Source of the DNA: Leucothrix mucor DSM 2157 | GTDB lineage: Bacteria; Pseudomonadota; Gammaproteobacteria; Thiotrichales; Thiotrichaceae | Reading direction: 5' to 3' | Assembly: GCF_000419525.1 (NCBI RefSeq) | Contig: NZ_ATTE01000001.1 | Span: 2,028,655 to 2,092,654 of the forward strand | Length of the DNA: 64,000 nucleotides | Shown here: piece by piece, positions 12,911 through 33,067 of the stretch | How the letters are laid out: each line of letters opens with the position of its first letter | Position numbering within the stretch: position 1 is the first letter of the stretch | The notes under the pieces: model-generated | Seen by the model: the letters and a program-made list of their open reading frames with translations, nothing else | Told to the model about the DNA's origin: nothing | Database searches by the model: none | Translations under genes and position numbers: made by a program

Positions 12911-13004
12911 GGCTCACTGCACCGTGCAGGAAAAAAATCGCATTATACATGATAGTGAACAGAGGAATGCCCGGATGCGTGTATTTTGTAATGCGTTGCG
13001 GTAG

Positions 13005-14147
<1,143 letters not shown>

Positions 14148-14195
14148 GATACTCTCGACAGTCATTAATCCCTAACAGACAGATATTTAAAGACA

Positions 14196-14837
14196 TTGGA
14201 ACATTCAACACGAAATCGCACCATTGCTCTGGCAGCACTGTTTCAGTGTGTCGAGGGCGTCATGCAACTGGCTAACAAAGGCGTTTGTGATGAAGCCTTG
14301 TTCGAGTCTTGCGTTACCAGTATTTTGATCGATGATGCCATCAGCGCGGAAGCGTTGTACGGCGGCCTCGGACCACTGAAACCTGGTCTGAACGCGCTCA
14401 TCAATCAACTGGGTAATCGCGGCGATGCCCCTGATGGTGGCAAAGGCCGACAGCTGGATGCGACTCAATATGCAATCAGCCTGATGGCGCTTGAAAAGAA
14501 GCTGTCTAACAATCCCGACGTGTTTAAGCGCGTGATTGATGGCATTGCTGATGCGCAGCGCCAGCAGGAGTTCTTCTCACCAACACACACCAATATGATT
14601 GCGCGACTGGCTGAGCTATATGCCACAACCATTAGCACCATTGGCCCACGCATTATGATTCGCGGTAATCAGGACTACCTGCAAAATACCGAGAATGCAG
14701 CCAAAATGCGTAGCTTATTGCTGGCGGGTATTCGTGCAGCGCTGCTGTGGAATCAAGCCGGTGGTACGCGCTGGAAGCTACTGTTTGAGCGCGGCAAAAT
14801 GCAGCGTGAAGCTCATGAATTACTAAAACGAATCTAA
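14196..14837 (+). CDS. hflD: High frequency lysogenization protein HflD
   Basis: 213 aa. Position directly after mnmA as in Enterobacteria, with overall similarity to HflD/YcfC. Confidence 0.7.
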   Translation: MEHSTRNRTIALAALFQCVEGVMQLANKGVCDEALFESCVTSILIDDAISAEALYGGLGPLKPGLNALINQLGNRGDAPDGGKGRQLDATQYAISLMALEKKLSNNPDVFKRVIDGIADAQRQQEFFSPTHTNMIARLAELYATTISTIGPRIMIRGNQDYLQNTENAAKMRSLLLAGIRAALLWNQAGGTRWKLLFERGKMQREAHELLKRI

Positions 14838-14854
14838 CCATTCGAATTAGACAC

Positions 14855-14892
14855 ATAAAAAAGGGACTGAGTAATCAGTCCCTTATTTGTAT
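14855..14892. terminator. Bidirectional terminator between convergent hflD and gltX
   Basis: Hairpin agggactgaGTAAtcagtccct flanked by an A-run upstream and a T-rich stretch downstream. Confidence 0.55.
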
Positions 14893-14910
14893 CTGCAATA
14901 ACCTCAGCAA

Positions 14911-16317
14911 TTAAGCAGGCATTGCCTCAATGGTTGCGATGGCTTTATCGATACGCGCCAAAGTGCGCTCACGACCAACCAGGCTCAAGGTTACATCCAA
15001 GCCCGGAGACATTGGCGTGCCAGCAACCGCTAAACGCAGTGGCGGGCCCACTTTACCCAGTTTCAAATCCATCGCTTCGCAACTGGCTTTAATCGCGGAT
15101 TCAATCGCTTCAGGATTCCAATCGCTTAACTCACTCAGCTGATCGCGAACCGTCTTCAAGATTGCATCAACACCCGGCTTGAACTGCTTGCTCAGGGCTT
15201 TCTCGTCATAGGCTTCAAAGTCTTCGAAGAAGTAACGGCTACTAGACACCAGATCAACCAAGGTCTTAGCACGATCACGCTGCGCTTCAATCACATCAGT
15301 CAGTGCCGGACCATTGCTGGTGTCCAGTTTTTGATTATCAAGATGCCACTGCAACTGCGCGGCAATATTCTCTGCTGGCAATGTCTTCAGGTATTGCTGG
15401 TTCATCCAGATTAATTTGTCAGTGTTAAAGGCTGATGGCGCGCCATGCACATCTTCAATCTTGAAAAACTCCAGCATTTCTTCCAGCGTGAAGATTTCCT
15501 GATCGCCATGCGCCCAACCCAAACGAATCAGGTAGTTCAACACCGCTTCTGGCAAGAAACCATCGTCGCGATATTGCATAACGCCAACCGCACCATGACG
15601 CTTGGACAGACGCTTTCCATCATCACCCAAAATCATTGGCACGTGAGCAAATTCCGGCAAAGTCGCCCCCAAGGCCAGCATGATATTAATCTGGCGCGGA
15701 GTATTATTGATGTGATCATCACCACGAATAACGTGAGTAATATTCATATCAAGATCGTCCACCACAACGGTTAAGTTGTAGGTTGGCGTGCCATCTGAAC
15801 GCGCGATAATTAGGTCATCCAACTCGCGGTTGTTAATGACAATCTCGCCTTTAACCAAATCATTAATCACCACATCGCCATCCAGCGGATTGCGGAAACG
15901 AACGACTGGGTCAACGCCTTCAACAGGCTCAGTACGATCACGGCAGCAACCGTTATAGCGTGGCTTTTCTTTATTCGCCCACTGCTGCTCGCGCATCGCA
16001 TCCAACTCTTCGCGACTGCAATAACAATGATAAGCATGTCCGGAATCCATTAACTCCTGAATCACTTCAGCATAACGGTCAAAGCGATGAGTCTGGAAAA
16101 TCGGACCTTCGTCATAATCCAGTCCCAACCATTCCATACCTTCTAAAATCGCCTGAACCGACTCATCCGTCGAGCGTTCGCGGTCGGTATCTTCAATACG
16201 CAGTGCAAAAACGCCATTCATTTTACGGGCGTGAAGCCAGCTATAAAGCGCGGTGCGAGCACCACCAATGTGCAGGTAGCCGGTAGGACTTGGAGCAAAA
16301 CGGGTTTTAACGGTCAT
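14911..16317 (-). CDS. gltX: Glutamate--tRNA ligase
   Basis: 468 aa. HIGH motif ([12 protein letters not shown]) and KMSKS-like KLSKR. Confidence 0.9.
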
Positions 16318-16462
16318 GGTAAATATCAGGTCAGCTATTTGAAGGGTGAAGCGTAGCAGGTTCGGGGTGTTAGCGGCAACGGGAAATCAGGTACTTGCAT
16401 CATCAACATACGATTTTTCAACGGCTTGAATCGCCGCTTTTGTTGTATAGTTCTCCCTCACA

Positions 16463-17542
16463 ATGCTCTCTACACCCATAACGAGGCAAATACTCATGCG
16501 CGATGGCACGATAAAAAGACTCCTTGGCACCGAGCTTCCCATTATTCAAGCGCCCATGGCCGGCGTTCAGGATAGCGCCTTGACCATTGCCGTGAGTGAG
16601 GCCGGCGGCTTAGGCTCGCTACCGTGTGGATTGTTGAACATTGAAACTATTGTCAGCGAGCTTGCAACCATTAAACAAGCCACTGATAAGCCGTTTAATC
16701 TCAATTTTTTCTGCCATGAGATGCCCGCTTACGATGAGCAGAAACAAGCACGCTGGAAGGAAGCATTATCACCCTATTTTGATGAGCTGGGTATTGAGCT
16801 GAAAAGCAGCCCCAACAGCGCCACTCGCATGCCATTCAATCATGATATTGCCGATGCCATTGAGCCGTTTAAACCTGAATTCATTAGTTTTCACTTTGGT
16901 CTTCCCTCTCGCGAGTTAGTTGCCCGCTTAAAACAGTGGGGAACCAGAATTGTGTCTTCTGCGACTACGGTTGAAGAAGCCCTATGGCTTGAGTCCAGAG
17001 GGGCTGATGGCATTATCGCTCAAGGATTTGAAGCGGGAGGCCATCGAGGCATGTTTCTATCCGATGATATATCGACTCAGGTTGGGCTTGCCGCACTCGT
17101 GCCTCAGATTGCTAGCAAGGTAGGCGTACCGGTGATTGCCGCTGGCGGCATTGCTGATAATCGTGGCGTGGAAGCGGCTTTATTACTAGGTGCCAGTGCT
17201 GTTCAAATTGGTACCGGCTATTTGCTGTGTACCGAGGCTAAAACCTCCCAACTACACCGTACTGCGATACAAAGCGACCAATCCAGCCATACTGCACTAA
17301 CCACGGTATTCACTGGCAGGCCCGCCAGAAGCATTGTTAACCGTGCGATGAAAGAACTGGGGTATATGGACTCACCCGCACCGGCATTTCCTTATGCCTC
17401 GATTGAGATGGGGCAATTACGCGGGCCTGCGGAGAAACTGGGCTCAGCTGATTTCTCGCCACTCTGGTGCGGACAGAACACCTCCGGCTGCCAAGCGATT
17501 GCGGCAAGGGAGTTAACCTTATTGTTGGCGGGCAAGGACTAA
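16463..17542 (+). CDS. Nitronate monooxygenase (2-nitropropane dioxygenase family, FMN TIM barrel)
   Basis: 359 aa with NMO family motifs (PIIQAPMAG, GFEAGGHRG). The start may be the downstream Met (MRDGTIK). Confidence 0.75.
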   Translation: MLSTPITRQILMRDGTIKRLLGTELPIIQAPMAGVQDSALTIAVSEAGGLGSLPCGLLNIETIVSELATIKQATDKPFNLNFFCHEMPAYDEQKQARWKEALSPYFDELGIELKSSPNSATRMPFNHDIADAIEPFKPEFISFHFGLPSRELVARLKQWGTRIVSSATTVEEALWLESRGADGIIAQGFEAGGHRGMFLSDDISTQVGLAALVPQIASKVGVPVIAAGGIADNRGVEAALLLGASAVQIGTGYLLCTEAKTSQLHRTAIQSDQSSHTALTTVFTGRPARSIVNRAMKELGYMDSPAPAFPYASIEMGQLRGPAEKLGSADFSPLWCGQNTSGCQAIAARELTLLLAGKD

Positions 17543-17677
17543 CCTGAACAAGATAAGCCACCTACCAAATCACAATTAGAATACCTAATAAATCCCAGCT
17601 CGAATAGTGTGCTTGTATCCGCGCTGTTTGACATTTCACGCTACACTCAACGCTCCCAGAACCCACCGGAATGACAC

Positions 17678-18556
17678 ATGCCCTTTCACGGAGTACGACC
17701 TGAGCGACGCTATTTATTCCATCCATCACCAGTGAGTGATGTCGGCGTGAATGATGCGAATGTCTGGCGTCTGAATCCAGCGCATCGACACGTTTATAAC
17801 AAGCTGCATGTTGCGCTATCGCAAGGCCTGATTGCTGCACCGAGTGGCGTTAGCCCGATTGCCATGGGACTTGAACCGGAGCACGCTTGCTTTGTAAAAC
17901 CCATCACCAATTTAGGCGGTATGTCGCTCAATAGCTTCGCAACCACCGCTCAGGCATTGACTGATGCCACTATCAATGGCACTGAAAACACAGCTAGCAA
18001 CTCAGCGGCTGGCAGCTTTTGGTGTGAGTTTTTATCCGGTACGCAAACCAGTACCGACGTTTTAGTGCTAAACGGCGAACCACAGTGGTATGGGCACACA
18101 AAAGCCGCTGATCAACGTGATAAAAACCGCCCTATTTACTGGCTGATTGGCGCAGATTGTCAGGACTCAGAAGCGCATATCGAAACCTTTATTCGTCGCG
18201 AATTAGCGGACTATACCGGCTTGTGTAATGTCGAGATGATTGGTAGCCACATCATCGAAGTCCACCTGCGCGGGTCAAATGCCTTTTTTGACTATTACCC
18301 CGATGCCTTTATGCAGGCGTGGGTGAATCTGGTCGATCATCAAACATGGCAAGGCTTGGAGCCCATTAACCAAGGTTGTTTGTACTCCCTATTTGGCGAT
18401 TGGACGCTCCCTGACAATGCCGAGCAACTGGTTGAAGCATCCGGTGCGCGCCTGTATCGCGATGGAATGATGGCTGATCGGGTAGGAATCATTTTTGCGG
18501 ATTGTCCTGAAACTGCGCAGTCTATTGAGGCACAGTTAAAACAATCAAGTTGTTAG
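17678..18556 (+). CDS. Hypothetical protein, possibly ATP-grasp-like
   Basis: 292 aa with no confident motif. There is weak resemblance to the ATP-grasp fold (NVEMIGSHIIEVHLRG). Confidence 0.3.
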   Translation: MPFHGVRPERRYLFHPSPVSDVGVNDANVWRLNPAHRHVYNKLHVALSQGLIAAPSGVSPIAMGLEPEHACFVKPITNLGGMSLNSFATTAQALTDATINGTENTASNSAAGSFWCEFLSGTQTSTDVLVLNGEPQWYGHTKAADQRDKNRPIYWLIGADCQDSEAHIETFIRRELADYTGLCNVEMIGSHIIEVHLRGSNAFFDYYPDAFMQAWVNLVDHQTWQGLEPINQGCLYSLFGDWTLPDNAEQLVEASGARLYRDGMMADRVGIIFADCPETAQSIEAQLKQSSC

Positions 18557-18705
18557 ATGCATAACTAATCAGCTCGCTAAACAATGAATATTCCATGCTA
18601 AAAAAACGTTTACTTGTGATATTCATCTCTCTGTGGGCCAAGTACAAGCTTGCATGCAAATTAAGTTTATAATATAAGCATGGCTGACCCACAAAGGTTC
18701 CTACC

Positions 18706-19137
18706 ATGTCCAGTCTAATCCATACCATATACGCTAGCCGAGCCGTTAACGACTTTTCACAAGATGACATTGTCGATTTACTATCGAAAGCGAGAACGAA
18801 AAATGCATCGCTGGGTATAACGGGCATGCTGCTCTATGACGATGGCTCTTTCTTTCAGGTTTTGGAAGGAGAGGAAGCGGCGCTTGATCAGCTATTCAGT
18901 GAGATCTCCGACGACAAACGTCACCAGCAGGTCGCCAAAATCATTTCAGAAGCCATTCCAAAGCGACAATTTAGCGACTGGAGCATGGGCTATGCGGCGA
19001 TTTCAAGTGATGAGTTAAAAACCATCGAAGGCATGAATGACTTTTTCACTGAGCAAAACTGCCTTGCAGAAATAGATGCCGGACGGGCTAAAAAATTACT
19101 GAAAGCTTTCGCTCAGGGTCGCTGGAGACTGGACTAG
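18706..19137 (+). CDS. BLUF domain blue-light sensor protein
   Basis: 143 aa. BLUF signature YASRA...GITGMLLYDDGSFFQVLEG, with a conserved Tyr/Gln/Trp/Met set apparent. Confidence 0.8.
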   Translation: MSSLIHTIYASRAVNDFSQDDIVDLLSKARTKNASLGITGMLLYDDGSFFQVLEGEEAALDQLFSEISDDKRHQQVAKIISEAIPKRQFSDWSMGYAAISSDELKTIEGMNDFFTEQNCLAEIDAGRAKKLLKAFAQGRWRLD

Positions 19138-19139
19138 CA

Positions 19140-19868
19140 ATGTCCACGCCTGCCAGCCTAAGCAATATCGACTTTTCCCATGCATTTCAACCTATTGTAG
19201 ATATCGATGAAGGCAAGATTATCTCGTATGAGGTACTGGTAAGAGGCCCTAACCAAGAGTCTCCGGCAACTGTATTTAGCCAAGTGACTAAGCAACAATT
19301 CATGGACTTTGATCAGCTGATCAGGGAAAGAGGCATCGCACAAGCTGCCTCACTTGGACTTAGCTGCTGCTTGAGTCTCAACTTTACACCCGGCGAAATC
19401 CTATTCGCGCATGGCGCTTATGTTGAGCGCACTATTAGCGTTGCAGAACAACACAATATCCATGCACATCAGCTCATTATCGAAATCACCGAAAGTGAGG
19501 CAATACTGGATTTGCCACTGTTAGCAGAAATCATCAACAAGCTACGCCGCAGTGGTATAGCCATCTCTATTGATGACTTTGGATCGGGTTATGCAGGCTT
19601 AAGCCTGCTTGCAGATATTCAACCTGACCAGGTAAAAATCGATATACACCTGATCAAAAACGTTAATAAAAACGGCCCTCGGCAAACCATTGTAAAAGCC
19701 ATTAATAATATTTGTCTGGATCTTGGCATTGACGTGCTGGCAGAAGGCGTCGAAAGCCACGAGGAGTTTTTATTTTTAGAACGTGCGGGAATATCGCTGT
19801 ATCAAGGTTGGTTTATCGCACGACCAGCATTTGAATCCCTGCCACTAACGTTTGACTTAAAGCCTTAA
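19140..19868 (+). CDS. EAL domain c-di-GMP phosphodiesterase (stand-alone)
   Basis: 242 aa. EAL catalytic motifs are present (EVLVR, EITE, DDFGSGYAG, KIDIHLI, EGVE, QG). Its start is 2 nt after the BLUF stop. Confidence 0.8.
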   Translation: MSTPASLSNIDFSHAFQPIVDIDEGKIISYEVLVRGPNQESPATVFSQVTKQQFMDFDQLIRERGIAQAASLGLSCCLSLNFTPGEILFAHGAYVERTISVAEQHNIHAHQLIIEITESEAILDLPLLAEIINKLRRSGIAISIDDFGSGYAGLSLLADIQPDQVKIDIHLIKNVNKNGPRQTIVKAINNICLDLGIDVLAEGVESHEEFLFLERAGISLYQGWFIARPAFESLPLTFDLKP

Positions 19869-19923
19869 CAAACGCTTCCCACCTACTCCCCAACTCTTGC
19901 GACTATCGTTTGAATCACAGCGG

Positions 19924-20160
19924 CTATTTACATGTAAGCCATTCGACCAAGGTATCCATATCTTCTTCTACTTCATCATCGGTTTGAGTTATTACGGAAA
20001 TACCCAGGCGCGATACATGCGTTATAAAACCGGCAAGCGTCATTTTTGCCAAGCTTGCAGCGCATACTAGAGACAACTCACCATCCTTGAATAAGGTGGT
20101 TGCAAGGGCAATACGCACATCTGGGGTATCGAATGCTTTGATTTGATTAATAGTTATCAT
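19924..20160 (-). CDS. UPF0175-like small protein (putative orphan antitoxin-like)
   Basis: 78 aa, with a helical LAKMTLAGFITHVSRLGI pattern resembling UPF0175. No partner toxin gene is adjacent. Confidence 0.35.
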   Translation of the reverse strand: MITINQIKAFDTPDVRIALATTLFKDGELSLVCAASLAKMTLAGFITHVSRLGISVITQTDDEVEEDMDTLVEWLTCK

Positions 20161-21199: not shown

Positions 21200-21400
21200 T
21201 TAGGCCGCTTTTTTAGCTATCTTCTTAGCTACTGCGCGTGCTTTCTTGTTGTCGCCCTTCTTGATTTTCTTCAGCGCTTTCTTAGCCGCTGCTTTTACAA
21301 CTTTCTTGCTCTTAGAGACTTTTAAGCCTGCTTTTTTAACGGCTTTCTCTGCGAACTTTACTGCTTTTTTCTTGGCATCTTTCTTGTTTAACTTAGACAC
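21200..21400 (-). CDS. Histone H1-like Lys/Ala-rich nucleoid protein
   Basis: KKAVKFAEKAVKKAGLKVSKSKKVVKAAAKKALKKIKKGDNKKARAVAKKIAKKAA. A GTG start at 21398-21400 is preceded by AGGAGA with a 7-nt spacer. The ORF-track N-terminal extension to 21508 reads as non-coding. Confidence 0.6.
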   Translation of the reverse strand: MSKLNKKDAKKKAVKFAEKAVKKAGLKVSKSKKVVKAAAKKALKKIKKGDNKKARAVAKKIAKKAA

Positions 21401-21469
21401 GTATATGTCTCCTTTCGATAATTGAGACCAAACAATAATGTATATACATAGTATAGTCAAGTGAAGTAC

Positions 21470-21502
21470 AAAATTGTAGGGCCGCCGGTATGGCAGCCCT
21501 CT
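21470..21502 (-). terminator. Possible terminator downstream of the large helicase gene
   Basis: Minus-strand hairpin gggctgccataccggcggccc followed by a weak T-run (tacaatttt). Confidence 0.3.
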
Positions 21503-21549
21503 TTGCAATGACTACTACTTCATAGCCTGAGCAGGCTACAAGGAAAAGC

Positions 21550-24500
21550 CTAATTAACAACCGTCAGGTACGTTGGCCATTGACCACTGTTAACCATTAA
21601 AGCCGTATCAAATACTCTTTGCATCTTCTCTTCCTGAGCATCTGCAGTGGCCGAAAAGTTAAAAAGCTGCTGCTGTTTAGTCTGCACTTTAGGATTCCAG
21701 TACCCCATTCCTTGGTCAAATAACAATGTACTTTTTCTTCCAGATGCCCACTCAATTTCCATGCTCCTGCCATGTTGTAAGTCGTAAGTCTTATCGAACA
21801 ACTGAACAGTAGGAGTTATTCCGAAGGCACCGGAGAACAACATCTCTATGCAATTGGTCAGATCACTATCTCTTATCCAGTCGTGCTTTATTTCACGACT
21901 CGGATATGCCGCATTCACCTTAGGTCTTAAGGTTCTAATCTCGACACTCTCCAACTCATCACCACTTAGAAGCTCAATAAATCCACTCAATAAAACAGCT
22001 GACCACGGTGACTTAAGGTATCGATCAGAGTAAACAATTGAACGCACCTGATCAGTCTTCAATAAATCAGAAAACTCTTTTGCATAAGACTCAAATAGCT
22101 TGGAAATTCGATCACTTACGCTACTGACAGGGCCGTTTAGTTCCTCAGTAATCACCATGACCGATGTACCAGATGCAGGCTTAATCCATAGAGAAGTATC
22201 AACAGGGTTAACTGCGATAGGTTCTAACTCATTTGAAGTTGCCCAAGTATCTGTCTTAGAAGATTGGAGCCAAGTGTCACCGGGTATCAAAGGCTCAGGG
22301 TTGCTACAGAAAAGCGTATGACACCCCTCCTCAGAAAAGACCTGCAGAATCAAGTTGGCATCACTACTGTGTATTGCTTTATCAAGCTCTACTATACGCA
22401 CCCCAAGCTCAGAAATTCGAGACAGATCCCTTTGAATCTCAGCTTCGAAGGCACTTGCTGATTCGATACATAGCTCTACACTTACTTTATCAACCAACTG
22501 CCAACGTAATACCTGATCTCTAAACCCAGCAAAACCTAAGTCCCATTGACTAATGTCGTTACTGAGTAAAAGACGAATCGTGACTTCAGAAGATTTACTT
22601 TTTAACGTATTAATAGATCTTCTGATGTACTGGTTGGCACCTCTGGAGCAATATGTAGCACCGGGAATATCTTTAAGGGCGTCCGGTAAAGATAAGAATG
22701 ACAGATAATCACTTTCTTCTAGCCACTGCTTTGCAGCTTTTCTGTCTAACTCTTCTTGCTCAACTCTACTGTCTTGTGATGCTAAGCAGGCAGAACACAC
22801 ATTGTCACAATCAGCTATACAATTTAGCTTTTCCTTTACTGATCCGATGAGACCGACCAAATCATCAAGACCTGCTAATACAAAACCAGCTCCACCGCTA
22901 GCCTGATCGAACACCTGAATAACTGAGCGTTTAGAGCCCGTTTCAAGATCTCGATTTACTCTATAACTGAACCCCATTTCAGAACTAGAGATCCCCAAAC
23001 GATCGGCTAGTGCATCACGAAGTGCTACCGCTATAGTTGTAGCAACAACCTTATCTTCAGCAGAATCACTCAGCCACTGCCCAGTTTTTGGATTCTTTAA
23101 ATATAGCTCTAAAACATCTGTCGTGATTTGGTAGCCAAGGTATATATTTGGTTTGACTGCCTCACCGGAACAGCTTTGTTCCTTATCACTGCTAACGCTC
23201 CCTCCGCCTATGGGCTTATGCATTTCATCAGGTTGCAAGGCTTTAGGCACATTACCTTCATTCGTCATTGACTCTGCTCGTCCACAACTCATGCATACCG
23301 CATAGCCTTTTTCGTGCTCTCCAGATGAATTATAAAAAACGCGACCGTCATTCCCATATTGAACATGACCGCAGCGAGCATCAGGCAGCGAAATTGACTC
23401 ACCAATTAATTGAATAAGTGGCTTCTCTACGCGAATAAATTTTTGTGATGAAATGTCATTGCCCGGAGAGTCATAAAAATCAGTCTGGAAACCTGCTGGA
23501 CGTAAGACCTGCTTTTGGTTTTTCGAAGAAATTTCAGTATCACAACCATCGCAAGTCAGGTTTTCACTATTGCTGTAAGCATTTTCTTTTAAGCCACTAG
23601 CCCCACAATTAGTACAACGCCAAGCAATATCAAACTTCTGAGCTTCATTGATTGCGCCTCCTGCATGCCATTGTAAACTAACACCAACTGAGCGATACAC
23701 TTTCCCATCAATAACGACTTGCGCACCAGGGGCATACTCCCTAATTGCAACATCTAACCCCCGCGAAGGCAGCTCTTTCCACTTTCCAGTATTATCCTCC
23801 CGTCCTTCATTTTCTTTCTGTTTTTGTTTTTGAATAAAGTCATCCATATTATAGGTATTCAGCGTAACAACATCTGTTGGAAAACCATAAACTGGAAGGA
23901 ATGTACGAACAGAAAGGTCTCGTAAAAGGTATTCACCCCCGTGCCTCGTAAGCTCTAAGGATAATGCCCTTTTATAAGCATTCTCCTTAGCATTCCCAAT
24001 GAGGAGGTTTAACTTATCAAAATCAGTTTTCCATCTGGTTTGAATACCCCCAATCAGGTCAGATGCATCAACAAAAAGCTCCTCTAAAGAACGCCCTGAG
24101 ATACCGGTGCCTGCTGTTAACTTAGCGACTGCAGAAGCGACCTCTCCTGAGTGTGAGGCTGATTCCAGCCAGTCTCTAAACCTCTGACATGGAGAGTTTT
24201 CCCCGCTATAAAACCAGCTCACTGTAAGTTTTATATAATCATCACTAGGCTCAATAAAGGTTCGAAGAAAGTATGAGAGTAAATATGAATTCACATGTCT
24301 TAATACAATCTTATCCGAGCTTAACGTAATACTGGGTGCAGGAATTTTTGTGACAAATGGCCATACCGGGTCATTGAAAGCCCGTCTATTATGTGGGTCC
24401 GCTTTGCATAAAGTGTATGCAATAGCCCTAGACTCGCTTCTTCGCCCGGCACGACCCGCTCGCTGTAAATAGTTTGCCGGATGAGGTGGAACATTATTCA

Positions 24501-27500
24501 TTACAACAGCTGATATGCCGCCAATATCTACCCCCATCTCCATAGTCGTTGAGCAGTTCAGAACATTAATTTTTCCTCGCTTAAATAGCTCTTCATATTC
24601 CTCCAGACGCTCTGAGGTTTGCTGTGCGGAGTGTTCTGCTGTTCTATAGTAAAATCCCCCCTCAACTGTTCTATCGCTAAGATCTGTCCACAGACTCTCG
24701 CTCCTTAGCTCATCAACCTCCTGATCTTGACTAACAAGTTCTCGGATTTGAACTAACTTTGGTACAGCACTGCTATTAGGTCTAAATTTAGACAGGTCGG
24801 GCAACTTTACTTTCTTACATCGGTAGTCGACATCAGTAAGGATTTTTCGTGGTAGATAAGGTGTTAAACCTCTGAAAGTAGTATCAATCAGGCGATTTGT
24901 TTCACTACAGACCCAAGCTTCTCTAGGTAATGAAAAGGTAATTTTATCCAATAGCAGTTGATAACCCTTATCAGTTCTCACCAAAATATTTACATTATCG
25001 CTAGTCAGAGCCTCCCAAGCAGACTTTAACCATAAATTCAGCTTGTTTTGGTCTTCCCTATTTGTCATGTCAAGGTTGCAACCAGTAGCTAAGAGCTTGA
25101 TTAATCTAGATGCACTATTCCCCTTAGCCTGAGGCCACATCTTTATTGTATTGCTCTCATCTGTATTTGATTCTGGCGGAAACAAGGATTTTGGTGAAAA
25201 CTTTGAGCCCATCCAGAACCTGATGGTGTTCTCAAGTTTCAAATAAGTATTTTCACGAACAAAGAAGTCTAATGTCACTTTAAGAAAATCTTTCCAGTCA
25301 CTTAGGCTTAACCGTCCTTCTAAACTAACATCTCCTTGTATTGGAGATATCGCTCTCGTTTGCTCCCAGTACTGAGGAGCATGAGATACATTCGATAAAC
25401 CCTCATAATTAACCTTAATAATTCCCAATGTCTCGGTGCTGTTCTGGTTTTTAGGTCGTCGCGCATACTCTCTTGCCAATAAAAGGCGGGCAATGTATCG
25501 ACCAGTATTATCCTCTGACAGAATCTTCCGGTTAATTGATATATTGTAATCAAGAATATATTGACTAACATCGGTACAACCGGAAAGCTCGCTTACCATA
25601 TCTTGCCAGTTCATTTCTGCAGCTTCTGGTCGTGAATCACTATCAATTAGCGCCTCAGCCTGCTTTCTAAAAACTGCAGCACGATCAGACATTCCTTTTA
25701 ACTCAAAGGTTTCAGCAAATGTTATCAAATCATCATAAGAAAACTCCCCCATGGGGGAGTTTGTGATCTTTGAGTCAACATTTTTTTGATTCTCTGCCAA
25801 GATCTCAAATACCAATCCTCTTAACCTTGACCGCTCAGCTTCCTGCTGCATTCTTACCGCCATTCTTGCCGTGCCTTGGCGACTATCGGTAAAGGTAATA
25901 AGTTTGCGTCCACGCCCAGGAAGTTCTTCAGGTGACTTTCCAGCACAATCCTCTTTATCTGGATCTGGGCAATATTCTAAGACCGTAGGAACCGCATTCG
26001 CAGTGTAAAAAGGAGATCCTAAGTATAATTGACGATACCAAGAACCAAACTTGGAGGACTTTGCGTCACAGCGGCTACATATAGACTCTGAATGATTAAT
26101 ATGGGAAAAGCTGATTGAAGAGTTACTCTGATTAAGTACACCAAACTTAAGGCTCTCAGTATCCAATGAGCTTTTGCCATACGATTCATTTTTACAGTTA
26201 ATTCCCGCAATGACTTTTTTCGTATCATTTGGTTGAATATCTGGAGCTGAGTCTGAACTACCTTCAAAATCCTCACTATCTGATTCAGAATTTAGTGAAA
26301 ACTCATCCTCAACATAAGTGCTGATTTGCTGAAGCTCTCCTCCCTTATCTTCGGCAAGTAAATGAGGCTCCTTACATCCCTTACAAAACGTTAGTTCGTA
26401 AACAGGTGACCCACATGAACAACGTGACTTATGAGCAGTGTAAATATTTCCAAACGACCACTTTCCTAAACTCTCTGGTTTGGCTGTACATTTGGGGTCA
26501 ATGCAAGCCCACAGACCATGTAACATCTGCTGAAAAAGATGAATCCGAAGCTTAAGAAAAGGTGCTGACTCGATACTAGGCTTTGTGCCTGTCATTAAAT
26601 CTAACCACCCAAGAAGCTCCTGCTGCTTCTCTGTAAGAGATTGTCCCTCCAACCTATCACCGAACTCATTTACCAGTTCAGACAAATCAAGTGGACGATT
26701 TTGTTTCACAGCACCATTTAAACTACCCTTAAGAATGTATGTTCTCAGGTCGTGAGACAGCCTGTTATTAATTAAAGCCGTGAACCTACTTTCTGAAACT
26801 TCAGAGCCGAGCTCTATCTGTGATATTTCATCAAAGCTTAAGTTAGATAACTTTTCAGGAAGCGAGATTTCATCCCAAATTCTCCTTCCACCAATAACAA
26901 CAACTTGATTTGTAGAAACCCCTGCCAAGTCTGCTAAGTACTGTGTCAACTGTTCCTTAGCATCCTCACCTGCGATAGTTGCAGAAGTGGCGACAAAACG
27001 AATATCTTTCGCGTCTCTGCCAAATGCCTCAACAACCCTACGTAGCAGTAATGAGATCTCAGCAGCTTGGGACCCAACATAGGTATGTGCTTCATCCAGA
27101 ACAATCCAGCGCAGAGATTTGGCTTCTTTTGAAATACTAAGGATTGGGCTATCTACTTGCCTCACCAACATGTATTCCAGCATGGTAGCGTTTGTCATTA
27201 AAATGGGGGCTGGTTCTTTTCTTAATAGCTCGCGAGAAAGAATCTGATTAGGCTTTTTCTTTTGCTCTTTTCTAACACGGTCTGACCTCTCCTCTGTTTT
27301 ACCGTTGTATAAGCAAAAACGTAGGTCGCTACCATAGGATTTAGTCCAGGCATCGAGCCTTTCCTGCTGAGAATTGATCAGTGCATTCAAAGGATAAAGA
27401 AATAGTGCTCTCACTCCGACCAGAGCACCCTTTTGATTAGCTCTTTCCTGAATTAAATCCTCAAGTATGGGAATCATGAAACACTCGGTCTTACCTGACC

Positions 27501-27867
27501 CCGTTCCACTTGTAATGACTGCTGACTTAGGCTGCTTATCTAACAGTGTTTCCCAAGCCTGAATTTGATGCTTGTAAGGCTTTAGACTTCTTGGAAAATC
27601 ATAGGCATCAGCTTTCTCCAAATTATCAAGCAAGCTTCTTGATAAAAGCGTTCCTTCTAAACTTGCCAATGATATTGCTGACGGCTCCCAGCCAAAAGTG
27701 TGCTCAAAAACGGGGGCTGCCAGAAAGCACCCATCAGAACCCAGCTCATCATTCATCTGGCTTGCAAGGTGCTGCCTGAGCTCTGCATTATTGATACCTA
27801 AAATACTTAATGTAGCCTCTCTGGTGCGACTGAGGCTTTGGTTAATTAAGTCCTTGAAGAAGTACAT
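21550..27867 (-). CDS. Very large SF2 DEAD/DEAH helicase with DUF1998-like Cys4 zinc-ribbon domain and unknown C-terminal region. DruE-like; candidate Druantia type III helicase.
   Basis: 2105 aa. Q-motif PYKHQIQAW, Walker A TSGTGSGKTE, DEAH box VLDEAHTY, motif III TSAT, motif VI QRAGRAGRR. Cys clusters CTNCG...CDGC and CMSCG resemble DUF1998/MrfA-like. About 40% GC versus about 48% in the flanks. Confidence 0.65.
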   Translation of the reverse strand: MYFFKDLINQSLSRTREATLSILGINNAELRQHLASQMNDELGSDGCFLAAPVFEHTFGWEPSAISLASLEGTLLSRSLLDNLEKADAYDFPRSLKPYKHQIQAWETLLDKQPKSAVITSGTGSGKTECFMIPILEDLIQERANQKGALVGVRALFLYPLNALINSQQERLDAWTKSYGSDLRFCLYNGKTEERSDRVRKEQKKKPNQILSRELLRKEPAPILMTNATMLEYMLVRQVDSPILSISKEAKSLRWIVLDEAHTYVGSQAAEISLLLRRVVEAFGRDAKDIRFVATSATIAGEDAKEQLTQYLADLAGVSTNQVVVIGGRRIWDEISLPEKLSNLSFDEISQIELGSEVSESRFTALINNRLSHDLRTYILKGSLNGAVKQNRPLDLSELVNEFGDRLEGQSLTEKQQELLGWLDLMTGTKPSIESAPFLKLRIHLFQQMLHGLWACIDPKCTAKPESLGKWSFGNIYTAHKSRCSCGSPVYELTFCKGCKEPHLLAEDKGGELQQISTYVEDEFSLNSESDSEDFEGSSDSAPDIQPNDTKKVIAGINCKNESYGKSSLDTESLKFGVLNQSNSSISFSHINHSESICSRCDAKSSKFGSWYRQLYLGSPFYTANAVPTVLEYCPDPDKEDCAGKSPEELPGRGRKLITFTDSRQGTARMAVRMQQEAERSRLRGLVFEILAENQKNVDSKITNSPMGEFSYDDLITFAETFELKGMSDRAAVFRKQAEALIDSDSRPEAAEMNWQDMVSELSGCTDVSQYILDYNISINRKILSEDNTGRYIARLLLAREYARRPKNQNSTETLGIIKVNYEGLSNVSHAPQYWEQTRAISPIQGDVSLEGRLSLSDWKDFLKVTLDFFVRENTYLKLENTIRFWMGSKFSPKSLFPPESNTDESNTIKMWPQAKGNSASRLIKLLATGCNLDMTNREDQNKLNLWLKSAWEALTSDNVNILVRTDKGYQLLLDKITFSLPREAWVCSETNRLIDTTFRGLTPYLPRKILTDVDYRCKKVKLPDLSKFRPNSSAVPKLVQIRELVSQDQEVDELRSESLWTDLSDRTVEGGFYYRTAEHSAQQTSERLEEYEELFKRGKINVLNCSTTMEMGVDIGGISAVVMNNVPPHPANYLQRAGRAGRRSESRAIAYTLCKADPHNRRAFNDPVWPFVTKIPAPSITLSSDKIVLRHVNSYLLSYFLRTFIEPSDDYIKLTVSWFYSGENSPCQRFRDWLESASHSGEVASAVAKLTAGTGISGRSLEELFVDASDLIGGIQTRWKTDFDKLNLLIGNAKENAYKRALSLELTRHGGEYLLRDLSVRTFLPVYGFPTDVVTLNTYNMDDFIQKQKQKENEGREDNTGKWKELPSRGLDVAIREYAPGAQVVIDGKVYRSVGVSLQWHAGGAINEAQKFDIAWRCTNCGASGLKENAYSNSENLTCDGCDTEISSKNQKQVLRPAGFQTDFYDSPGNDISSQKFIRVEKPLIQLIGESISLPDARCGHVQYGNDGRVFYNSSGEHEKGYAVCMSCGRAESMTNEGNVPKALQPDEMHKPIGGGSVSSDKEQSCSGEAVKPNIYLGYQITTDVLELYLKNPKTGQWLSDSAEDKVVATTIAVALRDALADRLGISSSEMGFSYRVNRDLETGSKRSVIQVFDQASGGAGFVLAGLDDLVGLIGSVKEKLNCIADCDNVCSACLASQDSRVEQEELDRKAAKQWLEESDYLSFLSLPDALKDIPGATYCSRGANQYIRRSINTLKSKSSEVTIRLLLSNDISQWDLGFAGFRDQVLRWQLVDKVSVELCIESASAFEAEIQRDLSRISELGVRIVELDKAIHSSDANLILQVFSEEGCHTLFCSNPEPLIPGDTWLQSSKTDTWATSNELEPIAVNPVDTSLWIKPASGTSVMVITEELNGPVSSVSDRISKLFESYAKEFSDLLKTDQVRSIVYSDRYLKSPWSAVLLSGFIELLSGDELESVEIRTLRPKVNAAYPSREIKHDWIRDSDLTNCIEMLFSGAFGITPTVQLFDKTYDLQHGRSMEIEWASGRKSTLLFDQGMGYWNPKVQTKQQQLFNFSATADAQEEKMQRVFDTALMVNSGQWPTYLTVVN

Positions 27868-27873
27868 AAGCGA

Positions 27874-30800
27874 TTAATCCTTATCGTTTTTATTAAGTAA
27901 ATATGAGGTAACAAGTGCATGAGCTGGCCGATACCAAGAGGTCCTATCAAAGTCTGATATTTTTCTGACAAAGAACTTTAGCTCGGCCATCGTTGAGTTC
28001 ATTTTTAAGTCAGCAATACTAGATTTTCCTGAGGTTACATAAGCCATAAATATAGGCAGGTAAACCACTGAATCTTCATATTTTTCAAGAGGCAGTGCCT
28101 TAATTTTCTTTGAAAAATCTTGCTGTTCAACCCACGCTGAAAGTTCACCATTCAAATACTTTGGCCAAAGAGTGTTTTGATAGCTTTCATGAAGAGTGTC
28201 CCTCCACATAGGCAATATCAAGTCAGGTGGCAGACTTGTAAGCACCTCATTATTGCCACTGCTAAGGTAGTGTTCCACGCTCTCAAAGCCAGAAACGATG
28301 TTCGAAAGAACGGCTTTTCTGTTATCAACCATGTCATTAATAACAAATTCTGGAAGCCCCATTCCCCTCAGCCAACGATCATAATTTTTATAGGCTTGGC
28401 TCCAAATAGGTAAAGAAATACTTTCCCAGATTATCGACAACTCATCACGCATCCGGTCACTAAATAACTCATCAACCTCAAGGCGTAAAATCGATACTGC
28501 TAAGGTTAGTGGATTGCGTGAAAGTGAAAGCCAACTCTCAAAGGTAGACAGTGGTAGGTGATCAAATTTTCTTTTAATATCATCTAAATATTGCCACCCA
28601 CTGTGATCAAGATCACTTCCCATTTCGGCAATTTGGTCATCTATTACATGTGGATTATTCTGAGGGTGATAAAGCCGCGCAGCCTCATGTAAGGAGTGAA
28701 TTTTAGATCCGGAAGAATAGGTATTCGAAGCCGGTTGGCCGACTAGCAGATATGGCCTGAACTTGACTCTAGACTCTGCTTCTGGATAGAGCAACCAAGG
28801 CCCATCTCTATACATGGAGTCATCTGTGACAAATCGGCCAGTACCCACTCCCTGACTTGTTAGTTCACGCAATTCAATGGGGGTTTGCTTGGGATCAGAA
28901 AGGAGCATTGCGGAGACATTTACTCCACTAGCCACTCTACCAGTCGTGAAGTCAGATGCAGTGAAAACCTCTGTGCTATCTTTTGCGATAGACCCGTTAT
29001 ATCTTTTAATATTGACTGTCATTAAGCGACGCTGAGGGCTTTCAACCGTTAGCTTGACATAGGCATCCTGACTTTCCATCGCAGCCAATATCTGTCGTAA
29101 ATCATTTTGATACGCAAACAAATTAACAGAAAGCGGAACATCACCCGATTTGAACAACCGGTAATCAAGATAAACGTTAGTGCTGAAGTTCTTATCCTGC
29201 AACTCCATTCTCAGATGAAAGGACTGTGTTTCACCTACAGAAAATAGCAATATACTCAAGCCAATCAGATCTTCTGGGATCAAACTTTCGGACGTCAATA
29301 TATTGTTACTGGAGTCCAATAATCGCGCTCCCTCATAAGGAAAAGGTAAGCGTAGTATTACTGGCTCAAGAAATTCACCACCTTTAACACTTAATTGAAG
29401 ATTAGAGGGTGGTACTGCGTCTCGATAAGAAAGTGAAATAACCGATCGCCCCTCAATAATCTCTAAGCGGGAGCTGATATTTTCACCCATGACGCCAAAC
29501 TTACACTCACCTCCCCCCATAATTTCAAGGCGAGCTGGGCGAGTAGCATCACCGGCAAACAAACGGACTTTAAAGCTTTCAGGTAGTACACCGAATTTTC
29601 TCCTGAATAGAATTTCACCAGAGCTATTTTTAAGCGTGTAATTAAAGACCCCACCTATCTCACGCCGGCTTTTAGCAACTAACTCTCCATTAATATACTC
29701 ATAAACAGAACCTTCATTGCTCTTTTGGCACAGCTTTGGCCATCCCAGATAGACAGCGTTAGGGAGGGAATCAAAATCAAGCAGCTTTCCATCCAATGCA
29801 AACGTTTGAGTTACAGAAGGATGATTCAAACGAACTCTAAACTTATCACTTCCCAGAAAGATTGATGTCTCCTGGCTAAGCAAAACCCAGCGAACACCAT
29901 CAGTTTGTATATGCTTTATTTCTACACTTTCCGCTGGAGTAAAGTCAGCATTAGGTGGAAGCCGCACTAAAACTGCTGGTTGCCTCAAGGAACAACTCGC
30001 ATTTGCAAGCAGTTCCTGATCACCACTTACCTCAAAAATGACCGGTGCAGTTTCAAAGTCAATAGAGCTGGCATCAAACTGAGTTTGATAAATGGCAACA
30101 CCGTTATCCATCAAAGCCAAAGAAAGTGACTCACTACAGTCTCTTCTTTTTAACACTACTGGTGCTCTCGGTAGCCGTACTTTCAGCTCAGTACCATTTT
30201 GTACTTCACCATAGACAATGCTACCCCGAGCAATAAGCACACTGCCCTCATAGAATGCCATTTCAAGACGAGTACTGCTTAGAGCCGAAATATCAACCGG
30301 AAAGGTTACCGCAATAGGCGTAATGAGTTGTGCCTGTAAATCCCAGTGACCTTCAACTTGTCCAGCAATACTGTGCGTACACCTGAAATCATTCGGTGTC
30401 TTTTTAATGATTTCATTTTCTGCCTGACGCTTACTTGCATCACGCAACCAGTCCGTAATCAGGTTTTTAGCATTAGCTTCATTAAGTGGTAGAGGAAAAT
30501 CTTTTTTCCAGCGGGGCTCAGCTTTATCTAAAAATTCAACCGGATCTATTTCTTGCTTCAAGCTGGGATACTTTCCTGCGAGATGCATCAGCTGTTCAAT
30601 CACACCTGCAAGCAATTGTCGGGTTTCAAGGTTGTGAAAGGTATAAGGCAAGTCTTGCTCATAACTGGCAATCATGTCACTCGTCGTGCCTAAACTGGCT
30701 TTATTGCTATGGTAATTCTTCAAACCCTTTCTGATTACACGCCCAAAGCCGTGTGTTTCGCTTTTTATCAGCGGCCAAGGCAGCCCGCCCTCCAGAAATA

Positions 30801-31176
30801 ATGAGCCAATAAAATTCCGACCTTTTTCTGTACGACGTATTGGCCTTTTCCAAAAGCTTTCTAAGCCATAACTTATGAGTTCACTTCTTAGACCTTGCTT
30901 AAAATCACAACCTAATGACTTATCTGCCCACTCCCACGACCAGCTACCCTCTTCTGCTCCGTAGTCGCGCCGAAACCTTTCTGCTACAAATAAACAATAG
31001 AGCTCAGCCCAATGCTTACCTTTGATCGGGTCTGTAGCGAATCTAATATTGGCGATTAACTTATTTTTCAGGCTTTGAAATTCCTCAAATGTTACGTGAT
31101 AACTATACAAAGGCTTACCAGTTGGCCCAGCAAAACATTCACGAATAAAGAGAAACTCACTCAACCAAGCCTTCAT
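27874..31176 (-). CDS. Large protein of unknown function upstream of the helicase. DruH-like; candidate Druantia type III partner.
   Basis: 1100 aa with no recognisable motif. Its stop is 6 nt before the helicase start. Size and order (unknown ~1000-aa protein then DUF1998 helicase) match the type III Druantia architecture. Low GC. Confidence 0.45.
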   Translation of the reverse strand: MKAWLSEFLFIRECFAGPTGKPLYSYHVTFEEFQSLKNKLIANIRFATDPIKGKHWAELYCLFVAERFRRDYGAEEGSWSWEWADKSLGCDFKQGLRSELISYGLESFWKRPIRRTEKGRNFIGSLFLEGGLPWPLIKSETHGFGRVIRKGLKNYHSNKASLGTTSDMIASYEQDLPYTFHNLETRQLLAGVIEQLMHLAGKYPSLKQEIDPVEFLDKAEPRWKKDFPLPLNEANAKNLITDWLRDASKRQAENEIIKKTPNDFRCTHSIAGQVEGHWDLQAQLITPIAVTFPVDISALSSTRLEMAFYEGSVLIARGSIVYGEVQNGTELKVRLPRAPVVLKRRDCSESLSLALMDNGVAIYQTQFDASSIDFETAPVIFEVSGDQELLANASCSLRQPAVLVRLPPNADFTPAESVEIKHIQTDGVRWVLLSQETSIFLGSDKFRVRLNHPSVTQTFALDGKLLDFDSLPNAVYLGWPKLCQKSNEGSVYEYINGELVAKSRREIGGVFNYTLKNSSGEILFRRKFGVLPESFKVRLFAGDATRPARLEIMGGGECKFGVMGENISSRLEIIEGRSVISLSYRDAVPPSNLQLSVKGGEFLEPVILRLPFPYEGARLLDSSNNILTSESLIPEDLIGLSILLFSVGETQSFHLRMELQDKNFSTNVYLDYRLFKSGDVPLSVNLFAYQNDLRQILAAMESQDAYVKLTVESPQRRLMTVNIKRYNGSIAKDSTEVFTASDFTTGRVASGVNVSAMLLSDPKQTPIELRELTSQGVGTGRFVTDDSMYRDGPWLLYPEAESRVKFRPYLLVGQPASNTYSSGSKIHSLHEAARLYHPQNNPHVIDDQIAEMGSDLDHSGWQYLDDIKRKFDHLPLSTFESWLSLSRNPLTLAVSILRLEVDELFSDRMRDELSIIWESISLPIWSQAYKNYDRWLRGMGLPEFVINDMVDNRKAVLSNIVSGFESVEHYLSSGNNEVLTSLPPDLILPMWRDTLHESYQNTLWPKYLNGELSAWVEQQDFSKKIKALPLEKYEDSVVYLPIFMAYVTSGKSSIADLKMNSTMAELKFFVRKISDFDRTSWYRPAHALVTSYLLNKNDKD

Positions 31177-32860: not shown

Positions 32861-32935
32861 GTTTTGCTAGTTGGAATCGAACCAACAACCGATTGATGAT
32901 GAGTCAATTGCTCTACCGCTTGAGCTATAACAAAT
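32861..32935 (-). ncRNA. tRNA-like element with CAT anticodon-like loop. It could be a degenerate tRNA-Met/Ile2 or a YrlA-type Y-RNA tRNA-mimic module.
   Basis: The minus strand folds as a cloverleaf: acceptor TTTGTTA/TAGCAAA (one G-U pair), D-stem GCTC/GAGC, anticodon stem ATTGA/TCAAT with loop CTCATCA, T-arm GTTGG-TTCGATT-CCAAC. It is non-canonical: U at position 1, C at position 37 and no encoded CCA. It sits between a sigma-54 promoter and the SPFH gene. Confidence 0.5.
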
Positions 32936-33067
32936 TGCCGTGCTTTTCGCACAGCGTGCTATGACCCTACACAGCCGATACACAGCCACTTTCAGAGAAA
33001 GCCTGTGTCAGGCAGGTATACAGAACCTGCTCCGCTGGCCAATGCAGTTAACAGTCATAAATAATCT

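Follow-up and report, generated by a model that had tools for sequence, protein, structure and literature searches.

The C-terminal third of DruE from a Leucothrix mucor type III-A Druantia system: an MZB zinc-binding domain followed by two PLD-like domains

The window analysed here, a stretch of 64,000 nucleotides from Leucothrix mucor DSM 2157 (contig NZ_ATTE01000001.1), holds on its minus strand a pair of adjacent genes followed by a hairpin:

27874..31176, minus strand: druH, 1100 aa, YjiT / STY4851-ECs_5259 family (PADLOC DruH3, NCBIfam, Pfam)
21550..27867, minus strand: druE, 2105 aa, WP_022951993.1, a YprA/MrfA-family SF2 helicase of type III-A Druantia
21478..21500, minus strand: terminator-like hairpin (consensus scan, pattern match only)

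The giant helicase with a long tail described in the original prediction is encoded by one unbroken open reading frame, whose 2105-aa product was identified as exactly that of L. mucor WP_022951993.1, and nucleotides 21550-23500 correspond to its aa ~1456-2105. DruE matches the PADLOC profile DruE3 (PDLC00037) with 2412 bits, aa 2-2103 falling on profile positions 4-2052 of 2055. Pfam detects DEAD (99-304), Helicase_C (1074-1143), and MZB (1613-1695) domains, all above gathering thresholds, and the helicase motifs include DEAH at aa 258-261 and QRAGRAGR at aa 1135-1142. Having an SF2 DEAH core and, after it, an MZB domain that bears a predicted Cys4 zinc site, the protein belongs among the YprA/MrfA-like helicases. 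DruH, in turn, scores 1208 bits against PADLOC DruH3 (aa 1-1098) and 810 bits against the NCBIfam model YjiT_fam, and has precomputed Pfam matches to YjiT_N and YjiT_2nd. The earlier suspicion of an anti-phage helicase with an 1100-aa partner is borne out by these full-length PADLOC matches to DruE and DruH.

Both genes share the same orientation, with 6 nt between the druH stop and the druE start, and no DruA-D, DruM, or DruF genes were found next to them by PADLOC on three flanking ORFs or by Pfam on the neighbours. A full-length DruE3 with an adjacent, co-oriented DruH is characteristic of type III Druantia, and the two C-terminal PLD-like domains of DruE, which subtype III-B does not have, assign it to III-A. 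Judged by sequence, druH and druE make up a textbook type III-A Druantia anti-phage system of two genes. The hairpin, whose 9-bp stem contains 7 GC pairs and precedes a T-rich tail, lies ~50 nt past the druE stop and is likely to mark the end of the druH-druE operon. PADLOC returned no match on the three flanking ORFs, no other defence system was found among the 12 neighbouring ORFs (Pfam for all, PADLOC also for three), and Pfam places these neighbours in housekeeping or regulatory families. The E. coli Druantia locus is reported beside Zorya II and ARMADA II, whereas no defence system appears in the L. mucor ORFs scanned. The pair sits on a low-GC insertion in L. mucor, around which a search for att-like direct repeats gave only short repeats at chance level.

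The tail of DruE contains, or directly follows, several groups of cysteines:

23542..23616, minus strand: putative Cys4 zinc motif C1418, C1421, C1439, C1442, upstream of the MZB domain and just outside 21550-23500
23170..23295, minus strand: second conserved Cys group C1525, C1528, C1566 (conservation)
22693..23361, minus strand: MZB (MrfA Zn-binding / DUF1998) domain, ~aa 1503-1725 (Pfam, AF2, Foldseek, 9tu7 alignment)
22786..22821, minus strand: putative MZB zinc motif C1683-x3-C1687-x3-C1691-x2-C1694 (translation, conservation, 9tu7)

The first two groups had been taken for the DUF1998 clusters, but their position would place them in the OB/zinc domain instead. Among 66 full-length DruE representatives, C1418, C1421, and C1439 are invariant and C1442 is a cysteine in 65; C1525, C1528, and C1566 are likewise invariant in all 66, and C1499 is unconserved. 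In E. coli DruE, the OB/zinc domain carries two zinc motifs (10.64898/2026.05.13.724758), to which, judging by position, the two L. mucor groups probably correspond.

The MZB domain was recognized by Pfam on a DruE fragment at aa 1613-1695 (E=5.5e-7), and its wider boundaries follow the truncations 1-1502 and 1-1723 made in E. coli DruE. The AF2 model of this part reaches a pLDDT of 80-89 over aa ~1566-1700, and Foldseek matches it to MrfA (6znp_A) with a probability of 0.93; the same structure is also found from DruE by sequence search. The two strings that the original prediction quoted for its Cys-rich patch both occur in the translation, GGAGFVLAGLDDLVGLIG spanning aa 1658-1675 and CIADCDNVCSACLA spanning aa 1683-1696, the latter encoded by nt 22780-22821. 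Since the Pfam match ends on this second patch (CIADCDNVCSAC, holding C1683, C1687, C1691, and C1694), the patch is the zinc motif of DUF1998 itself rather than an extra cluster lying beyond it. Its four cysteines are invariant in 67 diverse DruE representatives, which come from a library reduced by clustering at 50% identity, and align with Cys 1685/1687/1691/1694 of the 9tu7 chain, that is, E. coli C1681/1683/1687/1690. They constitute the canonical MZB zinc site, with zinc binding predicted from the sequence. In E. coli, mutation of these cysteines abolishes defence, and the truncation 1-1502 loses function while 1-1723 still unwinds; the MZB domain is needed for unwinding (10.64898/2026.05.13.724758). 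MrfA/YprA from Bacillus subtilis (6ZNP) resembles DruE in its Pfam MZB domain, its fold, and its terminal Cys4 zinc site; however, MrfA has 749 aa, ends after the MZB domain, and has its nuclease, MrfB, as a separate protein, whereas DruE adds large insertions and a PLD tandem.

Downstream of the MZB domain, the stretch devoid of sequence-family annotation comprises ~409 aa (1697-2105), and not the roughly 650 aa proposed earlier. It is occupied by two domains, the second of which carries two conserved motifs:

22168..22662, minus strand: PLD-like domain 1 (PLD1 / PLDi), ~aa 1736-1900, degenerate (AF2, fold matches)
21553..22167, minus strand: PLD-like domain 2 (PLD2 / PLDa), ~aa 1901-2105, with conserved putative pocket residues
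22006..22032, minus strand: YSDRYLKSP motif, aa 1946-1954 (conservation; motif identity with P. aeruginosa)
21697..21774, minus strand: H2032-G-R2034...S2042-G...D2051-Q-G-M-G-Y-W, putative diverged counterpart of the PLD HxK...GSxN element

Neither Pfam (E<=10) nor NCBIfam gave any match to aa 1697-2105 or to each half of it. The AF2 model of this region, with a pLDDT of 85, shows alternating beta and alpha elements, and the predicted structure has the PLD alpha/beta fold. Fold prediction followed by Foldseek, the check proposed with the original prediction, yielded PLD-like folds for the tail alongside MrfA for the MZB part: the tail model matches PLD3/PLD4, MITD1, Tdp1, Streptomyces PLD, BfiI, and Nuc, its best structural neighbour being the non-catalytic PLD-like domain of MITD1, and two structure-search methods, independent of each other, recover the fold. 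Searching with a profile built on the tail retrieves 1243 representatives, and in every full-length match among the 150 listed (1846-2253 aa) the tail stands at the C-terminus. Among all PDB sequences, a PLD2 profile finds DruE alone, the remaining hits (CLIC1, MAGI-2, and others; E>0.5) being due to chance. Comparison of the PLD1 and PLD2 profiles with hhalign gave a probability <1% and a local E=0.07, which is not significant, and an internal duplication is therefore not demonstrable from sequence.

The DruE tail was compared with the PLD nucleases Nuc, BfiI, NgoAVII, SauUSI, Zucchini, PLD3/PLD4, and Tdp1, and with MITD1. It shares with the superfamily a histidine followed two positions on by a basic residue at the start of a beta-strand, but not the HxK(x)4D(x)6GSxN motif, and sequence-profile similarity of PLD2 to HKD families was not found in Pfam (E<=10) or PDB sequences. 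The absence of a classical nuclease motif noted earlier stands: HxK(x)4D did not turn up when aa 1456-2105 were searched with a regular expression, and HxK(x)4D(x)6G(G/S)xN, expected in two copies per active site, is not present in the tail. The region had also been described as free of recognisable motifs, which does not hold, as HxR(x)4E at 2032-2039, YSDRYLKSP, and DQGMGYW all contain family-invariant residues. The first of them contains the sole HxR of aa 1456-2105, an arginine standing in place of the motif lysine, while the position of the aspartate (E2039) varies among representatives. The family signature of PLD2 reads Y1946-x-D1948-R-Y, P1954, H2032-x-R2034, and D2051-x-G2053, where D1948, H2032, R2034, and G2053 are invariant and D2051 is near-invariant in the 67 representatives; at the two positions of H1995-D1996-W, the same residues as in L. 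mucor occur in 41 and 38 of them. In the tail model, H2032 and R2034 open the strand at model residues 338-344, with D-Q-G coming after the next strand, and the H2032-x-R2034/DQG element may be taken to occupy the position of the HKD motif. PLD1, on the other hand, has no invariant polar residue and no conserved histidine in the same sample, although D1776 is kept in 41/67 and W1775 in 60/67. The lack of a conserved second histidine leaves a classical PLD mechanism with two histidines in one protomer unsupported and, together with the missing HxK(x)4D, makes these domains PLD-like in fold rather than demonstrated HKD enzymes.

The closest studied relative is DruE from E. coli (YjiV family; PDB 9TU7-9TUC), with ~2104 aa against 2105 in L. 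mucor. PDB 9tu7, which belongs to 10.64898/2026.05.13.724758, is collinear with L. mucor DruE over aa 4-2082 (E=0). In the tail, phmmer aligns aa 1456-2082 with 9tu7 residues 1460-2087 (E=2.8e-49, 171 bits over 627 aa). Both proteins share the order MZB, PLD1, PLD2, the aligned MZB Cys4, the DruH partner, and the motifs YSDRYL-SP, HGR, and D-x-G-x-x-YW. The tails are, however, only distantly similar, and L. mucor has H1995-D1996-W where E. coli has N-A-W, and D-Q-G (Q2052) where E. coli has D-M-G. As expected for such a distant orthologue, druE had no megablast match in complete E. coli genomes. For the Pseudomonas aeruginosa protein, D1917-R1918-Y1919 equals L. mucor D1948-R1949-Y1950 by motif identity, as the domain has no other conserved DRY, and H1999/R2001 are the motif counterparts of H2032/R2034. 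From its spacing and from the alignment with E. coli, S2022 would correspond to G2055, which is Gly in 59/67 representatives. No exact match to the P. aeruginosa DruE was obtained when it was sought by residue numbering among the fetched representatives.

The makeup of the DruE tail is thus already known, with an MZB zinc-binding module followed by two PLD-like domains and structures solved in 2025-2026. The original prediction, which called the tail uncharacterised, had itself named a shared C-terminal part of known fold as the finding that would speak against it. This is what the tail is, and the label falls because type III-A DruE proteins share this region as their conserved C-terminus.

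What the PLD module does is disputed, as the reports on orthologues are in conflict. In P. aeruginosa, a PLD pocket of nine residues, including D1740, H1830, R1951, and S2022, has been described, and ssDNA degradation depends on this pocket (D1740, D1917, R1918); the mutants D1740A, D1917A, and R1918A lose defence, D1740A also loses nuclease activity on ssDNA, and DruH is reported to be a 3'-5' exonuclease (10.64898/2026.05.13.724313). The E. coli DruE has been called a helicase-nuclease that cleaves long ssDNA; its PLDa pocket binds ATPgammaS, and it forms a trimer via CTD interfaces whose mutants lose defence (PMC13192584). Two other studies found that E. coli DruE without PLD2 or both PLD domains retains defence, and detected no nuclease activity (10.64898/2026.05.13.724758; 10.64898/2026.05.12.722862). 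According to the prediction of Bell et al., there are two PLD domains, of which the last one alone would be active. The earlier proposal that an effector function may reside in the tail fits the P. aeruginosa pocket and the E. coli helicase-nuclease, but given the dispensability of the PLD domains and the lack of nuclease activity in the two E. coli studies, this role is not settled.

We infer that the segment 21550-23500 very probably encodes the C-terminal third of DruE, comprising the end of the OB/zinc domain, the MZB domain, and a PLD pseudo-dimer with a phosphate or nucleotide pocket in PLD2. In this arrangement, the end of the OB/zinc domain would form the first part of the tail, and the MZB and OB domains would provide a lid over the tracking strand, with the MZB domain coupling ATP hydrolysis to 3'-to-5' duplex unwinding, as the literature on orthologues suggests. 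The degenerate PLD1 and PLD2 would pack as a pseudo-dimer, PLD2 offering a polar pocket composed of D1948-R-Y, H2032-x-R2034, and D2051-x-G, to which H1995-D1996 would be added in the L. mucor clade. PLD2 would most likely bind and cleave, or at least bind, phosphate backbone or nucleotide, and the helicase may spool out ssDNA for PLD2 to degrade. Family membership, domain folds, motif conservation, and the match to solved structures come from the present analysis, and the roles of the MZB domain and of the P. aeruginosa pocket from work on orthologues; PLD2 of L. mucor is probably functional.

A competing explanation, which we consider doubtful, is that the PLD-like tandem has no catalytic activity and plays a structural, oligomerisation, or nucleotide-sensing role, where CTD contacts assemble DruE, the ATP pocket regulates it, and any DNA destruction is carried out by DruH or other host systems. 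The missing HxK(x)4D, the closeness to the non-enzymatic MITD1 domain, the E. coli deletions that keep defence with no nuclease activity seen, the CTD-interface trimer with ATPgammaS in its PLDa pocket and its defence-negative interface mutants, and the exonuclease reported for the P. aeruginosa DruH are all consistent with it. However, invariant D1948, H2032, and R2034 with near-invariant D2051 are typical of a phosphate-handling site and not of a mere scaffold, the P. aeruginosa pocket mutants lose defence and, for D1740A, ssDNA degradation, and fusion and conservation in >1000 clusters would be unexpected for a module that can be spared everywhere.

It is also conceivable, albeit rather unlikely, that PLD2 is an undefined variant of the PLD fold, catalytic or ligand-binding, with a Y-x-D-R-Y, (H-D-W), H-x-R, D-Q-G pocket in place of two HKD motifs. 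Such a domain might act only on helicase-fed ssDNA, or when CTD-mediated oligomerisation pairs two PLD2 pockets; the near-absolute conservation across 67 lineages would then account for the pocket being needed in certain assays (P. aeruginosa; Bas37 in E. coli) and not in others (Bas26 and the truncation mutants in E. coli). A novel sensing or effector domain with a lineage-specific zinc cluster, unrelated to known folds, is extremely improbable and was rejected: aa 1697-2105 have no Pfam or NCBIfam model and the PLD2 profile retrieves only DruE from the PDB, but the Cys cluster falls within the MZB match of Pfam and does not vary across the family, two structure-search methods return PLD-like folds, the tail aligns with the solved 9tu7 structure, and it has already been described in at least five papers of 2025-2026.

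Classical PLD nucleases are metal-independent. The activity of DruE orthologues, unlike theirs, is reported to need Mg2+ and ATP (10.64898/2026.05.13.724313; PMC13192584).

Beyond the corrected annotation of the DruE tail as an MZB domain plus two PLD-like domains, the invariant or near-invariant pocket residues in the 67 representatives indicate that the PLD2 module is under strong selection, which contrasts with its dispensability in two E. coli studies and bears on the disagreement among four 2026 preprints as to whether DruE itself is a nuclease. The L. mucor DruE, with the H1995-D1996-W and Q2052 that the E. coli protein lacks, could serve as a third test case.

The region singled out in the original prediction (21550-23500) corresponds to residues ~1456-2105 of the larger product of a two-gene locus, which is organized as follows:

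21550-27867, minus strand, druE, an uninterrupted ORF of 2105 aa
27874-31176, minus strand, druH, an ORF of 1100 aa located 6 nt upstream of druE

The larger protein is a type III DruE (PADLOC PDLC00037, 2412 bits, aa 2-2103) and its partner is DruH (PADLOC PDLC00050, 1208 bits, aa 1-1098), which also matches NCBIfam YjiT_fam with 810 bits. Both are identical to Leucothrix mucor sequences (WP_022951993.1 and WP_022951994.1, respectively). The original prediction is only partly confirmed: the ORF and the two quoted strings, GGAGFVLAGLDDLVGLIG (aa 1658-1675) and CIADCDNVCSACLA (aa 1683-1696), are present, but the extra cysteine cluster that it placed after DUF1998 is the DUF1998 zinc site itself. 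The MrfA Zn-binding domain (MZB, formerly DUF1998) is found by Pfam at aa 1613-1695, in a match that finishes exactly on the CIADCDNVCSAC patch. Residues C1683, C1687, C1691, and C1694 are invariant across a diverse set of 67 full-length DruE proteins (representatives from a library with 50% identity clustering) and align by phmmer with Cys 1685/1687/1691/1694 of the 9tu7 chain (PDB entry of preprint 10.64898/2026.05.13.724758). This chain is E. coli DruE with a 4-residue offset, for which N1987, Q1990, and Y1995 of PMC13192584 served as a check. In E. coli numbering, the four aligned cysteines are thus C1681/C1683/C1687/C1690, and defence is lost when they are substituted (10.64898/2026.05.13.724758). 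The end of the MZB match, the invariance of the cysteines and their alignment to essential E. coli residues identify the patch as the canonical zinc site of DUF1998 rather than a further cluster. C1418/1421/1439/1442 and C1525/1528/1566, the clusters previously read as DUF1998, are essentially invariant too and match in position the zinc motifs described for the E. coli DruE OB/zinc domain (10.64898/2026.05.13.724758).

No Pfam or NCBIfam model matches the remaining tail (aa 1697-2105, ~409 aa), even at E<=10, which is why reading the sequence alone revealed nothing there. A collection of 5.8 billion proteins yielded 24 homologues of the tail, mostly gene fragments, and the AlphaFold2 model built from their alignment is confident (mean pLDDT 85). 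It has a helical linker and, after it, two domains of alternating beta/alpha structure (aa ~1736-1900 and ~1901-2105), and its Foldseek matches in the PDB are PLD3/PLD4, MITD1, Tdp1, Streptomyces PLD, TrmBL2, BfiI, and Nuc. In a model of all 650 aa of the flagged region (pLDDT 77, with the first ~110 residues poor and modelled out of context), the PLD-type matches recur, together with MrfA 6znp on the MZB part. Judged from these models and matches, the region reads as the end of the OB/zinc domain, the MZB, and two PLD-like domains (PLD1 and PLD2). The PLD-like folds and the canonical nature of the cysteine patch refute the idea that the tail has a novel fold and an additional zinc cluster. 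In the 650-aa model, the MZB part (aa ~1566-1700, window ~22770-23170) also matches LuxS (1ie0, 1j98) with a Foldseek probability of 0.96-0.98, at least as good as that of MrfA (0.93); the likeness may reflect a common alpha/beta sandwich with a metal site.

The tail is a conserved C-terminal part whose folds are known, the very outcome named in the original prediction as its refutation. Its profile matches 1243 proteins at E<=1e-3 among 1.84 billion cluster representatives, and lies at the extreme C-terminus in every full-length protein (1846-2253 aa) among the 150 matches listed. The alignment of the PADLOC DruE profiles of types I, II, and IV to the L. mucor protein stops at about aa 1695-1717, which indicates that every DruE type has the MZB and only the type III-A lineage has the PLD tandem, the same picture as that drawn by Bell et al. 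2025 (PMC12458937). Tail-only ORFs occur in some complete or large genome assemblies, such as a 533-aa ORF of Legionella quinlivanii comprising the MZB end, PLD1, and PLD2, or the PLD2-only ORFs of Burkholderia gladioli (230 aa) and Azotobacter beijerinckii (224 aa); they might be druE genes that are split or in decay, or else PLD2 proteins in their own right.

The nature of the DruE tail is in fact already known. Two PLD-like domains, of which only the last was predicted active, were described in 2025 (Bell et al. 2025, PMC12458937), and cryo-EM structures by several groups followed in 2026, between which the function is disputed. The tail is thus neither uncharacterised nor novel, as had been supposed, but the effector role suggested for it is plausible, and the residual value of the present data lies only in the bearing of residue conservation on the current dispute over nuclease activity. 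Across the 67 representatives, PLD1 has no invariant polar residue (W1775 is kept in 60 and D1776 in 41). In PLD2, Y1946, D1948, P1954, H2032, R2034, and G2053 are invariant, and D2051 (66/67), Y1950 (62/67), R1949 (58/67), Q2052 (50/67), H1995 (41/67), and D1996 (38/67) are kept to varying degrees. The HxK(x)4D motif is absent from aa 1456-2105, and the sole HxR(x)4E there (aa 2032-2039) ends in E2039, which is variable within the family. In the model, a beta-strand starts at H2032/R2034, the hairpin is formed by S2042-G2043, and D2051-Q-G follows the next strand, from which we infer that H2032/R2034...D2051-Q-G would stand where HxK...GSxN stands in the topology of HKD enzymes. The PLD2 profile matched no HKD protein among PDB sequences, and the PLD1 and PLD2 profiles have no detectable similarity to each other.

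The main alternative is a non-catalytic PLD module with a regulatory or oligomerisation role. It is backed by E. coli DruE, which tolerates the loss of PLD2 or of both PLDs, domains lacking H(X)K(X)4D (10.64898/2026.05.12.722862), and which, as a 1-1723 truncation, retains DNA binding, ATP hydrolysis, unwinding, and protection, with no reproducible nuclease activity observed (10.64898/2026.05.13.724758). Another study of this protein reported that it cleaves long ssDNA, holds an additional ATPgammaS in the pocket of PLD2 (there PLDa), and forms trimers through the CTD, and that pocket residue R1258 is required (PMC13192584). In P. aeruginosa, DruE has an ssDNA-degrading activity with ATP and Mg2+, which D1740A abolishes; D1740A, D1917A, and R1918A each abolish defence, the pocket also including Y1919, H1999, and R2001 (10.64898/2026.05.13.724313). 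D1917-R1918-Y1919 and H1999/R2001 have exact counterparts in L. mucor D1948-R1949-Y1950 and H2032/R2034, whereas E. coli differs from L. mucor in having N-A-W instead of H1995-D1996-W and Met instead of Q2052. The non-catalytic reading seems rather unlikely, and the L. mucor PLD2, whose pocket is probably functional, would most likely be an ATP-coupled ssDNA nuclease like that of P. aeruginosa.

The family, folds, and conservation of the L. mucor tail are established in this analysis. In orthologues, the MZB and its zinc site are needed to couple ATP hydrolysis to 3'-to-5' unwinding, and the peripheral PLD module shifts upon DNA binding, DruH binding, or oligomerisation. The invariant PLD2 pocket would handle a phosphate, of either the DNA backbone or a nucleotide.

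The GC content of druH and druE (42.3-42.4%) is below that of the flanks (48-50% at 10000-20000 and 33000-45000) and the adjacent slipin gene, so that the pair looks like a compact, horizontally acquired two-gene insertion of ~9.7 kb. No att-like direct repeats were found around it, nor an integrase gene among the ORFs scanned. The neighbours include the following features:

18706-19137, plus strand, BLUF gene
19140-19868, plus strand, EAL gene, 2 nt after the former
21200-21508, minus strand, mechanically listed 102-aa ORF without family match
21478-21500, minus strand, terminator-like hairpin, 50 nt past the druE stop and within the 102-aa ORF
31428-32573, minus strand, SPFH/Band-7 (slipin) gene, directly upstream of druH
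32861-32934, minus strand, tRNA-Met gene, 1.7 kb upstream of druH-druE
33239-34843, plus strand, RtcR-type sigma-54 activator (RtcR N-domain and Sigma54_activat)

No recognised defence gene was found among 12 neighbouring ORFs (Pfam on all 12, PADLOC on 3 of them), which include gltX, a nitronate monooxygenase, the BLUF/EAL pair, an aldo-keto reductase, the slipin, the RtcR-type activator, and a LacI-type regulator. The slipin, whose cluster has 12 metagenome members, is host-like and not island-like in GC content (48.8%), and is therefore probably no part of the Druantia defence system. The 102-aa ORF is probably not a gene; in the Logan assembly, the gene called directly downstream of druE is a different one, of 66 aa. 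The RtcR-type activator is followed by the LacI-type regulator instead of rtcB/rtcA, with no obvious target operon in the window. The BLUF and EAL genes look like a split BlrP1-like blue-light-regulated c-di-GMP phosphodiesterase. Finally, at 36001-38000, where genes for EamA and MFS transporters lie on the minus strand, the AT skew is strong (+0.33) and the GC skew negative, the simplest explanation being that membrane proteins use T-rich codons on the coding strand.
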